Of a stretch of 64,000 nucleotides of DNA, positions 39,534-53,255 are shown piece after piece; the first letter of the stretch is position 1; every line of letters begins with the position of its first letter. Below the pieces are notes generated by a model. It did not search any database, was not told the origin of the DNA, and saw nothing but the letters and a program-made list of their open reading frames with translations. Origin of the DNA: Candidatus Hodarchaeota archaeon (GTDB lineage: Archaea > Asgardarchaeota > Heimdallarchaeia > Hodarchaeales > Hodarchaeaceae). The translations under genes and the position numbers were made by a program. The stretch covers positions 1 to 64,000 of the forward strand of contig JAEOTM010000187.1 in NCBI GenBank assembly GCA_016839815.1, in the 5' to 3' direction.

Positions 39534-42500
39534 ATGCGACTGAAAGTCTTACGTGTCCAACACATTATGTTGTTAACAGTATTAATGTTAAATGTTTTTG
39601 CTTTGATGATTAATTTTAATAGTGTATTGGAGGGAGAAGTCGAAGGATTCACTGCAGACCTATTAAGAGGATTTGGAGTACCAATACATAATGAAGATCA
39701 AAGTGAATCAGTAATCCCGAAATTAACAACTGAATCTCTTAATAAAATTGACGAAAGGAATCAGGTGAACTCTTTTCCCATCACAACATCAAAGATCGTC
39801 AATAGTTTTTCGCTTCCCTCTTGGGGAGGATTGGGTTTTGGGTTTAGGAAAAATATCACAATTGATTCTACTAAAGTTCCTACAGATTTAACTAATTTTC
39901 CTTTATTGATTGATATGAAAGACGCTCCTGATATCTTTGGTGTTACTCAAGCTTCGGGAAAGGATATTATATTTACTGATTCATCAGGGACGATTTTAGA
40001 TCATGAAATTGAACTCTTTGATGACGATACTTATCATTTAGTTGCCTGGGTGCGCATTCCTTCCCTTTCAAGTAGCCTAGATACACGTATTTCAATGTAC
40101 TATGGAAATGAAACTATTGGTACTCAACAAAATCCCTCTGGTGTTTGGGACAACGACTATATGGCTGTGTATCACTTAAACGATAATCCTAGCTCGACCA
40201 TCTATGATAGTACTTCCAATGATAATGATGGGTCATCATATGGTTCTGTCATTCAAGAAGAGGGACTGATGGGAAATGCTTATTACTTTGATCAACAAGG
40301 AGGTACAAATGATTATCTACAGATTCCTCAAAGCACTAGTCTTAATCTCGTAGGAAATCAGATGACCTTAGAAGGATGGGTGTACTTACAATTTACTCCT
40401 GTACTACATGATTCCATGGTTTTTGACAAGGCAGGTGATTTTTACAATACTGATGGATGGATGATGGGAGTTGATGGAGAGTACGTATCTGGTGGAGTCG
40501 GGTATCCCACACGGTTAAATCAACGATTAAATACTCAAAATAATCAAGCTATTCGAACAGATAATGGTGCAATTTATCCTGGACAATGGACTTATCTCAC
40601 AGTAGTTTATAACGGTATCACGACATCGTATACTGGTTATATTGATGCTTCAAGTGTTTATAATAATCCAAGCATCAGTGGGAATATTAGACCGGTAGAT
40701 ATGGATCTATTTATTGGAAAACGCGATGAAGCTGCAAATCGAGTGTTTTATGGAAGTATGGATGAGCTTAGAATTTCAAATACTACACGATCAACTGGTT
40801 ATATTACAACCTGTTATAATAATTACAACGATCCCGATTCATTTTATAGTATCTCCCCTCAAGAACCTAGTTTTTCATTATTTGAAAAACAAAGGACTCT
40901 TACAATTGATTCTTCAATTGTAGCTGGTGGTAGTGATTTAACCAACTTTCCATTACTTTTGAATTTATACCTAGAAAATGCTTCTCAGAATGTGTTGTTC
41001 CAAGATGCTTCCACCTCTCAAACCCTTGATTATGAGATTGAGCACTTCGATGCAGAATATAACACAAGTCATGGCAGGTTGGTAGTGTGGGTAAAAATTC
41101 CGATATTATCTAGTACAGTTGATACAGAAATTATCATGTTTACAGATTCTACTATAGCACCTGTGACAAGTAATACGAATATCTGGAAAGGATATCGAGG
41201 AGTTTGGCACTTGAGTGAGAGTGTCGTAGATGAGAGTTCAGCAAATAATGTTTACTTTGATGCAACTGGGGAAGGAAGTTTAGGAAATCAGCATGGTAGT
41301 GATGATAGTGGGAGCTCACTTGGTAAAGGAGCAAGTTTTGATGGTACCAATGACTATATCGAAATGGGTTCCCCTAATATCTTGAATCTCAATGATAGTA
41401 CTGATTCTGGAGGAATTGATCAAGTTTTTACACTTTCTGGATGGTTTTATCGAGATACCACTGGTACTATTGATGTAATTGTTGATAAATCTCAAGATGG
41501 AACTTATCCTAATATTCTAACTGGGTACATGGCATATATCGACTCAGATAACCGATTTAATTTTCGTCTTATGGATGATGATGATGATGGTTACAAAATG
41601 ATTTCTGCATCAACTTATACTAATCCTGGTTGGCATCATTTTGCGGCCACTTTCGATACATGTGGAGGTGGGGGGATATTCACAGAAAGTGTGAATTGGA
41701 AATTACTTATTGATGGTGTTGATGACACGGGAACAAAAGGAAGTTGGGGTCCAGGTGGAGGAGCATGGGAGTGGATCAATGGTTATCTGCCTAATGATGG
41801 TTATTTCACAATTGGAGCAAATTCCAATAATTCCAATTATTTCGATGGACTTATCGATGAAATTCGTTTGATAGATTCAACCTTATCACCAGATTGGATC
41901 GCTACCGAGTATCGTAACGCCTATAATTTATCATCTTACCTTTCTATTAGCCCTGAAATCGAAAGCCAAAGATTATGGCATGATGATTCATTTGCAAGAC
42001 GAAAGGATTTGCAGATCGATTCTTCAGGTTTTCAGGATGCGAATAATGAACATCATATTATACTTCGACCAGGTGCGCGAGGAACAGATTATAATCAATG
42101 GGGAGTATCAGGAGCTAATTATCGGCATGCAGCAGTAGAGGAAGTTATAGCTGACGGTTGGACAACGTATATCACCCATTCTAGTAATAATACCTATCTA
42201 CGTGAGATGTTCTATGCCGTTGGGTTACCTCCCACGACACCAAGTGGAACAATTACTAGTGTGAGGATTTATAGTACAGCAAGGACTTCTGGAGTCGTAT
42301 CTTCTTATGCATTTCAACATTATGTGAGAGTAGGCGGATCTAACCAATGGTTTGGATCTCGGGGTCTTAGTGGTTCTTGGATTAAGGATTATGATGAACA
42401 AACAACTAATCCTGTTACTTCTCAACCTTGGACATGGCAGGATTTGGTAGATTTTGAATTTGGAGTCCGTGCTCAAGTTGTAGAAGGTGCTTCTGCAGGA

Positions 42501-52235: not shown

Positions 52236-53255
52236 TTAATCAAATAATAAAAGTCCATTCTCGATTTTACATCCAGACATTACATTCGTTTGGATTGCTT
52301 GTTGTACAACTCCCATAATAAATTTTTCAGAGAATCCTACTTCTGATGCTAACAACGTAAAATCAATTGAGGCTTTATTGTTGAATGCATCCAAAATCCT
52401 CTTGGCTAGTAATCCTCGAATTTTTTTCACTGGAATTGACAAAAATTGATCTAATTCATCAAAATCGAGTTTTCCTGATAATCTAAGTCGATATTGAAGG
52501 CCCATATCCGTCTGTGTTTCTAATCCAGACTTACTTAGTAATTGTTTTCCTACAAAAGGATCAGTAATCATTTCAGCGCGATATAGGTTTCCTCGAGGCA
52601 TTTTTTTCTTGAACTCATCGACAATTCTTCTTATTTTTGTTTTTACGAGAGGAGTAGGTTGATCGCGAAAAATTACCTGAAGCTGAGTTTTTTCCGTATT
52701 TACAAGGAGAATCGGAGCTAATTCAGGAATCATGGAAATATTACTAAAGGCATCAACAGTTTCTGCATCTGTTATATAATATGCATCCATACCAGTATCG
52801 ATAATCTGAATATTTTGGTCTATCTTCTTTAGGATTTCTTGATTATAAAGATCTTTATCATTTACAATATTGTAGACTCGGAGAGTCCTTTTAATCATGA
52901 GTTTCAGAAATTCCGTATATTTACTGATGGAACTTGAGGTAGTAATAATCCAAAAGAATATCATTCGACCAAATTGAGCAATTCTATTGTCCATAGAATC
53001 TTTTGCTGCTAAAGAAAACATGAAAGCCTCTGAGACATAGGGTTCTTTGGGAGTGGGAATTGGTCCATAAGCCCGTACTTCTCCTGGATTAAATGGCTGA
53101 CTTGTTCCGATCGCGGTTAATGTTTTTATTGCCATGGTAAAAGCTTCATCATCAGCCAATGGAGAAGAGTTGTAAATGTTCGTGGGTCCCTCATCCTCGA
53201 AAACTGTGACTATAAGTCCATCTGTCAGTGCTTTCGTACTATCTTTTTGAGTCAT
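52236..53255 (-). CDS. uDENN/longin-like protein with a C-terminal winged-helix (PCI-like) domain
   Basis: LIVTVFEDEGP, FMFSL..KDSMDNR..FGR; C-terminal IDFTLLASEVGFS..IENG. ATG at 53255 preferred over track start 53294. Confidence 0.65.
   Translation of the reverse strand: MTQKDSTKALTDGLIVTVFEDEGPTNIYNSSPLADDEAFTMAIKTLTAIGTSQPFNPGEVRAYGPIPTPKEPYVSEAFMFSLAAKDSMDNRIAQFGRMIFFWIITTSSSISKYTEFLKLMIKRTLRVYNIVNDKDLYNQEILKKIDQNIQIIDTGMDAYYITDAETVDAFSNISMIPELAPILLVNTEKTQLQVIFRDQPTPLVKTKIRRIVDEFKKKMPRGNLYRAEMITDPFVGKQLLSKSGLETQTDMGLQYRLRLSGKLDFDELDQFLSIPVKKIRGLLAKRILDAFNNKASIDFTLLASEVGFSEKFIMGVVQQAIQTNVMSGCKIENGLLLFD

Follow-up and report, generated by a model that had tools for sequence, protein, structure and literature searches.

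Contig JAEOTM010000187.1 (assembly GCA_016839815.1), from a Hodarchaeales archaeon, was analysed over a stretch of 64,000 nucleotides, here called the window. Positions 39534-53255 hold a locus of four genes, where a giant surface protein, ending in a cytoplasmic longin domain (the "tail"), is encoded next to two Rag-family GTPases and a second, soluble longin protein. Rag GTPases and longin-domain GTPase-activating proteins, or GAPs (folliculin, FLCN; GATOR1), are central to nutrient sensing in eukaryotes.

The features of the locus are reported in Table 1. The four open reading frames (ORFs) follow each other in the strand order + - + -, with gaps of 19 bp (48792-48810) and 16 bp (52220-52235) between the convergent pairs: the tight packing indicated in a preliminary description of this DNA is borne out by the ORF coordinates. 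The start of the fourth gene is most likely at 53255, because its homologues are 339 aa long. The divergent pair of GTPase genes is kept across the genus; in public records, close homologues are labelled as Hodarchaeales or Heimdallarchaeota.

Table 1. Genes, domains and motifs of the locus, in window positions
Feature	Position	Strand	Basis
Giant single-pass surface protein, 3085 aa	39534..48791 (longest frame from 39477)	+	ORF, translation, Pfam, hydropathy
Eleven tandem repeats of ~100 aa (aa 1490-2606), presumed immunoglobulin (Ig)-like stalk	44001..47351	+	jackhmmer, one unit against the protein, E 1e-16 to 4e-44
Transmembrane (TM) helix (aa 2868-2890), then basic RFIRKP	48135..48203	+	Kyte-Doolittle, 19-aa window, up to 2.74
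Cytoplasmic folliculin-type longin domain (aa 2891-3085), 195 aa	48204..48788	+	AlphaFold2 (AF2), VIA, Foldseek, Pfam on family
GP motif (tail G46-P47), start of strand beta2	48339..48344	+	Alignment of 51 tails, AF2 model
Invariant arginine (tail R114, 'ARGG'), beta4-beta5 loop, candidate arginine finger	48543..48545	+	Alignment of 51 tails, hhalign to FLCN
Long Rag-like GTPase, 731 aa	48811..51006	-	Pfam Gtr1_RagA
Two homologous units of ~100 aa in the long GTPase (aa 481-585 and 604-696)	48919..49566	-	hhalign probability 97.9%, E 6.5e-13
Helical domain of the long GTPase (aa 350-470)	49597..49959	-	NCBIfam GatE, E 7.5e-5; PDB chain 1zq1_C by family profile, E 0.0018
Divergent intergenic region between the GTPase genes, 316 bp, presumed promoters	51007..51322	.	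ORF coordinates
RagA/Gtr1-like GTPase, 298 aa	51323..52219	+	Pfam Gtr1_RagA
Soluble longin / gelsolin-like / winged-helix protein, 339 aa	52236..53255 (longest frame to 53294)	-	AF2, VIA

The giant protein and its cytoplasmic tail

The giant protein begins with a hydrophobic segment (aa 5-32), fit for a signal or an anchor. Its ectodomain contains Laminin_G_3 in three stretches (Pfam E 1.6e-38), a DUF2341 domain (E 5.5e-22) and the tandem repeats, which presumably form an Ig-like stalk. A single TM helix is followed by basic residues, and the tail is therefore placed on the cytoplasmic side; a TM helix and basic residues directly precede the tail in 58 out of 59 copies of this domain. A giant single-pass protein with a cytoplasmic longin tail, as initially described, is thus found by hydropathy, Pfam and AF2. 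The ectodomains of the tail-bearing proteins, named in databases either "DUF2341 domain-containing" or "hypothetical", range from ~500 to more than 10,000 aa and feature varied domains; their tails are still 50-85% identical.

In four genus relatives (L013, L014, L016, L017), two or three genes for tail-bearing surface proteins form tandem arrays, where one gene is enormous, with open frames of 8,800-10,400 aa. These arrays belong to basal tail subfamilies and are without a GTPase gene within 10 kb. Single in-frame stops are present in the giant tail-bearing genes of some relatives (for example G060:C4:67064-67645, G048:C112:6225-6806 and G065:C6:244766-245341), and may indicate pseudogenes, assembly errors or split genes.

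The structure predicted for the tail by AF2 (predicted local confidence, pLDDT, 89.2; predicted template-modelling score, pTM, 0.86) starts with two short helices, followed by the b-b-a-b-b-b-a-a order of a longin domain. Strand beta2 corresponds to residues 46-53, with the GP motif at its start, and ARGG is found in the beta4-beta5 loop. When the model is compared to the PDB by VIA, the best match is the longin domain of the Lokiarchaeota Roadblock-Longin protein 8yqg (Z 14.8). Lst4 (Z 12.3), folliculin (6nzd_H, Z 12.2, 17% identity), a GATOR1 chain and C9orf72-SMCR8 (both Z 11.5), SEAC (Z 10.7) and FNIP2 (6ulg_N, Z 9.8, the chain being identified from its residue range and from 6ulg_L being folliculin) are also matched. 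The eight best matches are the Asgard longin and then longins of GAP complexes; the longins of TRAPP, DENND1A, AP and COPI score Z 9.0 or less. In Foldseek, the FLCN-FNIP2-Rag-Ragulator complex ranks first (E 5e-4), and the FLCN GAP complex in its active state (E 1.2e-3) is also among the top matches; LOV/PAS domains are interspersed with them. The longin fold previously claimed for the tail is thus supported by the model and by both comparisons. Since the profiles of the tail family and of the 339-aa family do not retrieve any significant PDB chain by sequence, the fold assignments of both proteins rest on predicted structures.

The conserved residues were evaluated on an alignment of 51 tails from related loci, with identity to the window tail down to ~20%. 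G35, F41, G46, P49, F77, R114 and G115 are invariant, P47 is found in at least 90% of the tails, and the conserved motifs may be written as DQxxGPIP and ARGGxENL. The window tail itself has no Pfam match; 19 of the 51 tails individually match the Folliculin family (PF11704; best E 6.4e-4), over a region spanning the ARGG loop and the next strand and helix, and any other Pfam family is matched by at most one tail. When the family is aligned to human FLCN by hhalign, tail residues 101-122 fall, ungapped, within FLCN segment 150-178 (sequence as in PDB 6ulg_L), and A113-R114-G115 fall on A163-R164-G165. Arg164 is the catalytic finger of folliculin in its RagC GAP activity (PMC9473554). A GP motif beside an arginine finger sets the GAP longins FLCN, NPRL2, SMCR8 and C9orf72 apart from other longins, and some Heimdallarchaeial longins carry both (PMC12290439). 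Model and alignments together support the tail as a putative folliculin-type longin, with a GP motif and an arginine in register with FLCN Arg164.

The two GTPases and the soluble longin protein

Both GTPases belong to the Rag family, as anticipated: with a Pfam cut-off of 22 bits for Gtr1_RagA, the 298-aa protein scores 125.8 bits (E 2.3e-36) and the 731-aa protein 105.2 bits (E 4.6e-30). Their G domains (aa 8-198 and aa 17-187, respectively) are 32% identical to each other, and feature the G3 and G4 motifs as DCGGQ and HKID in the short protein, DLGGQ and HKND in the long one. The best solved relatives of the 298-aa GTPase are Gtr1 (E 2.6e-26) and RagA (1e-23), with RagC only at 1e-11; for the 731-aa GTPase the best one is RagA (E 1.5e-19).

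The two proteins differ after the G domain. The C-terminal domain of the short GTPase (aa 186-298) finds, as its top profile match, the MK-D1 roadblock 9jue_D, aligned over its full length but with a weak E of 0.49; the alignment of this GTPase to LokiRagO reaches into the C-terminal domain. Of the roadblock domain proposed in the preliminary description, a roadblock-like domain, weakly supported by these profile matches, may be retained. In the long GTPase, the G domain is followed by a P/T/E-rich linker, a helical domain and a duplicated C-terminal domain. A profile search of this C-terminal region against the PDB gives a match in the helical part only. For the duplicated units, hhalign finds no relation with the roadblock-like domain of the 298-aa neighbour. 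The GatE-like part resembles the C-terminal helical domain of GatE (tRNA-binding, YqeY-like), here combined with a small GTPase.

A 726-aa paralogue of the long GTPase, with a C-terminal region 43% identical, is encoded in the same genome on another contig (C168:98751-101213; L008:14752-17214). It diverges from another Gtr1_RagA gene, cut by the contig end; no giant tail-bearing gene is found beside this long/short pair.

The fourth gene had been described as a second longin protein. The 339-aa product, which has no Pfam match of its own, indeed folds as a longin, followed by a gelsolin-like domain and a winged helix, the three domains being predicted by AF2 with pLDDT 78.7. For the longin domain (aa 5-155) the VIA scores are Z 10.6 to 8yqg and Z 9.9 to C9orf72-SMCR8, Lst4 and folliculin, with GATOR1 at Z 8.5 and SEAC at Z 7.9; AP/COPI longins tie with the best matches within 1 Z. 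The gelsolin-like domain (aa 154-246) matches Thorarchaeota ProGel over 87 of 88 residues (Z 9.3), and also the gelsolin-like domains of Sec23/24, which do not bind actin. The winged helix (aa 274-339) matches UFL1/DDRGK1 (Z 9.9), and Pfam PCI is weakly matched by 21 of the 35 family members. Invariant residues of the family are F19, G23 and P24, at the start of beta2, and D89 and R91, between beta4 and beta5; GP and DxR are kept in all five paralogues of the soluble longin in the same genome. Homologues are confined to Hodarchaeales-type genomes. Neither BLASTP nor hhalign detects any similarity in sequence between the tail and the 339-aa protein. A shorter paralogue of the soluble protein, encoded on contig C112 (68102-68866) of the same genome, keeps the longin and gelsolin-like domains, is without the winged helix and contains one in-frame TAG.

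Gene linkage across genomes

The tail family is small: 205 clusters are found in a profile search of 1.8 billion representatives. Among the best 150 of the matches listed, the tail is the extreme C-terminus throughout, and nearly all of the short, "stand-alone" tails are partial proteins, cut by contig ends. Up to ~10 copies are present per genus genome.

Linkage was counted in 22 genus genomes, and the counts are lower bounds, since many contigs are short. A Rag gene of the long or the short type is found within 13 kb of 22 out of 56 close tails; conversely, a tail is found within 13 kb of 17 out of 31 long-type and of 18 out of 35 short-type Rag genes. The expected rate by chance is roughly 3% per gene (5 tails x 26 kb / 4.2 Mb). 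The fourth gene behaves similarly, with a short Rag gene within 3 kb of 19 out of 25 orthologues. Within the genus, at least five gene orders occur: the giant gene may be convergent on the long Rag gene, as in the window; downstream of the long Rag gene; downstream of, or divergent from, the short one; followed by the short one; or 6-7 kb away from the Rag pair.

The association extends to two other families of Heimdallarchaeia (f4 and f7), whose tails are only ~20% identical and belong to proteins of ~1450-1630 aa. In 10 out of 12 loci, one or two Gtr1_RagA GTPases (Pfam E 1e-23 to 5e-34) directly adjoin the tail gene: one is a long form with a low-complexity region, the other a short form with a weak roadblock-like signal (hhalign E 4.9e-4). 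Family hidden Markov models (HMMs) of both GTPase C-terminal regions detect nothing beside these loci. In the tail tree, Rag-linked loci are found on both sides of the deepest split, while no Rag link is seen in two of the basal subclades of family f1 or in several paralogues of the crown. The co-conservation with Rag genes, one of the grounds on which the preliminary description had staked its proposal, is therefore found both in several gene orders within the genus and in two further families.

The soluble longin type has a linkage of its own. On contig C182 (18858-26925), a 272-aa GP-motif longin paralogue (19805-20620, - strand) lies immediately upstream of a Gtr1_RagA GTPase gene (18858-19874, - strand), with further Gtr1_RagA-type genes at 21597-22631 and 25978-26925 and a weak match at 21068-21421. 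Most of the 22 genomes have such a longin gene followed by a Rag gene, which independently shows that longins of the soluble type and Rag-family GTPases travel together.

A second tail-bearing surface protein of the same genome (contig C195:2-3007, L009) has a tail 48% identical to that of the window, its 5' end being cut by the contig start. In its closest relative (L045), a short Rag gene and a soluble longin gene lie upstream of the giant gene.

Interpretation and known systems

The folds, the motifs, the membrane topology and the gene linkage described above are best explained, with a probability of about 0.55, by a conserved Heimdallarchaeial module in which the tail acts as a GAP on Rag-family GTPases. 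The module would be composed of the surface protein, the two GTPases and the soluble longin protein. On the inner side of the membrane, the tethered longin would physically bind one of the GTPases, or both, and stimulate GTP hydrolysis through Arg114. It may act as a homodimer or in a pair with the soluble longin, the latter composition being modelled on FLCN-FNIP, NPRL2-NPRL3 and SMCR8-C9orf72. As for the direction of control, either the ectodomain may govern the GTPases or the GTPases the ectodomain; a GAP controlled by a receptor is plausible.

Folliculin-FNIP (Lst7-Lst4), the GAP of RagC/D, shares with the tail the longin fold, the GP before beta2 and the arginine in the beta4-beta5 loop. 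The likeness extends to the second longin protein, encoded alongside, and to the Rag-family type of the neighbouring GTPases. Folliculin-FNIP, however, is soluble and recruited to lysosomes, while the tail forms the end of a giant extracellular protein, past its TM helix, and lacks a DENN domain; furthermore, archaea are not expected to have a TOR kinase (Liu et al., preprint 10.1101/2020.10.19.343400). GATOR1 (NPRL2-NPRL3-DEPDC5), or SEACIT, is the GAP of RagA, and the client GTPases would here be RagA-like; its longin chains match both the tail and the soluble protein, and the order of longin, middle domain and winged helix in the latter recalls NPRL2/3. Yet confident alignment is limited to the longin part, the middle domain resembles gelsolin and not a known NPRL domain, and no DEPDC5-like component is seen at the locus.

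Among prokaryotic systems, the Loki Roadblock-Longin protein 8yqg is the best structural match of both models, and the published Asgard longins of FLCN/SMCR8 type have the same fold class and the same GP and arginine motifs as the tail (PMC12290439). The 2025 survey describing them asks whether ArfR or Rag/Gtr GTPases are the partners of GP-motif longins; here, in contrast, partners are suggested by the gene neighbourhood, and one of the longins is tethered to the membrane by a surface protein. A conserved cluster of a small GTPase with regulators of the longin/roadblock superfamily is also seen in the Asgard LAMTOR1-like/Rab-like/DENN operon, whose GTPase does not belong to the Rag family (Liu et al., preprint 10.1101/2020.10.19.343400), and which, unlike this locus, does not include a membrane-spanning surface protein. 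MglA-MglB, finally, couples a prokaryotic small GTPase to a GAP of the roadblock/longin superfamily, and controls surface adhesion and motility machinery; it differs in the GTPase family, in the regulator being a roadblock, not a longin, and in its solubility.

Three other explanations may be compared with a tail acting as a GAP. The tail, with or without the soluble longin, might be an anchor or a guanine nucleotide exchange factor (GEF), docking the Rag-like pair at the membrane in the way of Ragulator/Ego or of the longin GEFs Mon1-Ccz1 and TRAPP, with the arginine and the GP motif having a structural or binding role. Longin and roadblock dimers are indeed general GTPase platforms, acting mainly as GEFs (PMC10933270). 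Non-GAP longins and roadblocks match the tail model at Z 7-9, and the tail supplies the membrane anchor which eukaryotic Rags lack and obtain from Ragulator. Nevertheless, this role appears unlikely: longins of GAP type lead those of GEF type by at least 1-3 Z units, non-GAP longins reportedly lack the GP motif (PMC12290439), and the invariant R114 falls on an arginine finger of proven function. Even less probable, by far, is that the genes are neighbours without a shared function, with a gene order inherited in close genomes and a tail involved, for example, in the sorting or anchoring of surface proteins. It is true that most tail-bearing paralogues do not lie beside GTPase genes, that the sampled genomes are related and that many contigs are short. 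Adjacency, however, survives at least five gene orders and recurs in families where the tail is ~20% identical and the GTPase C-terminal regions are different, and the fold and motifs of the tail are those of a GTPase regulator.

The remaining explanation concerns only the direction of control, and fits either biochemical role of the tail. The Rag-like GTPases might act upstream, the giant protein being their effector or cargo, so that the nucleotide state sets its placement, clustering or adhesiveness, as for MglA/MglB in Myxococcus. The presence, in a genome, of up to ~10 tail-bearing proteins and of 1-3 Rag modules looks as if one switch served many cargoes; ectodomains vary widely as the tail stays 50-85% identical; the gelsolin-like domain of the soluble partner hints at a cytoskeletal link; and a bacterial polarity system made of a small GTPase and a roadblock exists (PMC9481161). 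Such an inside-out control is possible, although somewhat doubtful, as LamG and Ig-like ectodomains are just as characteristic of receptors that bind ligands and sequence alone cannot discriminate the direction.

A number of observations weigh against the tail being a GAP for these GTPases. Most longin platforms are GEFs or scaffolds rather than GAPs. As a family, the tails stay below the PF11704 cut-off (best 20.0 bits, compared to 23.3), and the alignment of R114 to FLCN Arg164, with E 0.009 over 22 columns, is weak when taken alone. No DENN or NPRL-type domain follows the tail longin, the protein ending ~10 residues past its last helix. By their G domains, which score far higher against RagA/Gtr1 than against RagC/Gtr2, both GTPases look RagA-like and unlike a RagA/RagC pair, and no roadblock domain is detected in the 731-aa one by hhalign or by PDB profile. 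The family HMM does not detect the soluble longin beside the f4 and f7 loci, and no GTPase gene is found downstream of the C195 tail gene, whose contig starts inside the gene. Related genomes, moreover, are not independent samples. Finally, about 60% of the close tail-bearing genes, and the two basal f1 subfamilies, lack a neighbouring Rag gene. The arrangement is therefore not universal, and the self-contained pathway envisaged in the preliminary description does not extend to all tail-bearing genes.

The tail acting as a GAP may be developed into a complete outside-in pathway, where ligands, or clustering, of the variable LamG/Ig ectodomains would assemble the tails and the soluble longin/gelsolin-like protein into an arginine-finger GAP, able to switch the Rag pair. 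FLCN/GATOR1-Rag nutrient signalling would then have had a precursor coupled to a receptor, with a possible output to the actin cytoskeleton. In this full form the proposal is speculative and rather unlikely.

Rag-like GTPases, roadblock and longin proteins are well documented in Asgard archaea (PMC10933270), and Asgard longins similar to FLCN/NPRL2 have been published (Liu et al., preprint 10.1101/2020.10.19.343400; PMC12290439). In MK-D1, GTPase genes do not as a rule share operons with longin or roadblock genes, and gene layout seldom reveals GTPase-regulator pairs (Tran et al., PMC10933270). The architecture had been presented as undescribed. In the literature searched, there is indeed no description either of surface proteins that carry a folliculin-type longin past their TM helix, or of the conserved linkage of this longin to Rag genes; this novelty does not extend to Asgard longins of FLCN/SMCR8 type with GP and arginine finger, which are already known (PMC12290439).

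The fusion to a surface protein is an unexpected membrane placement for a longin regulator, and makes the locus a testable prokaryotic counterpart of eukaryotic Rag signalling. Together with its relatives, it offers defined, clonable candidate pairs, composed of the tail or the 339-aa protein and the two Rag-type GTPases. If the biochemistry holds, the relationship between Rags and longin GAPs would be older than eukaryotes, and would have begun at the cell membrane rather than at an organelle.

The genes flanking the locus are unrelated to it: membrane, transport and redox proteins are encoded upstream, and acetyl-CoA-related enzymes downstream. Elsewhere in the window, a 365-aa protein encoded at 58798-59895 (- strand) features two Cys-rich CxxC clusters, each preceded by a helical segment.

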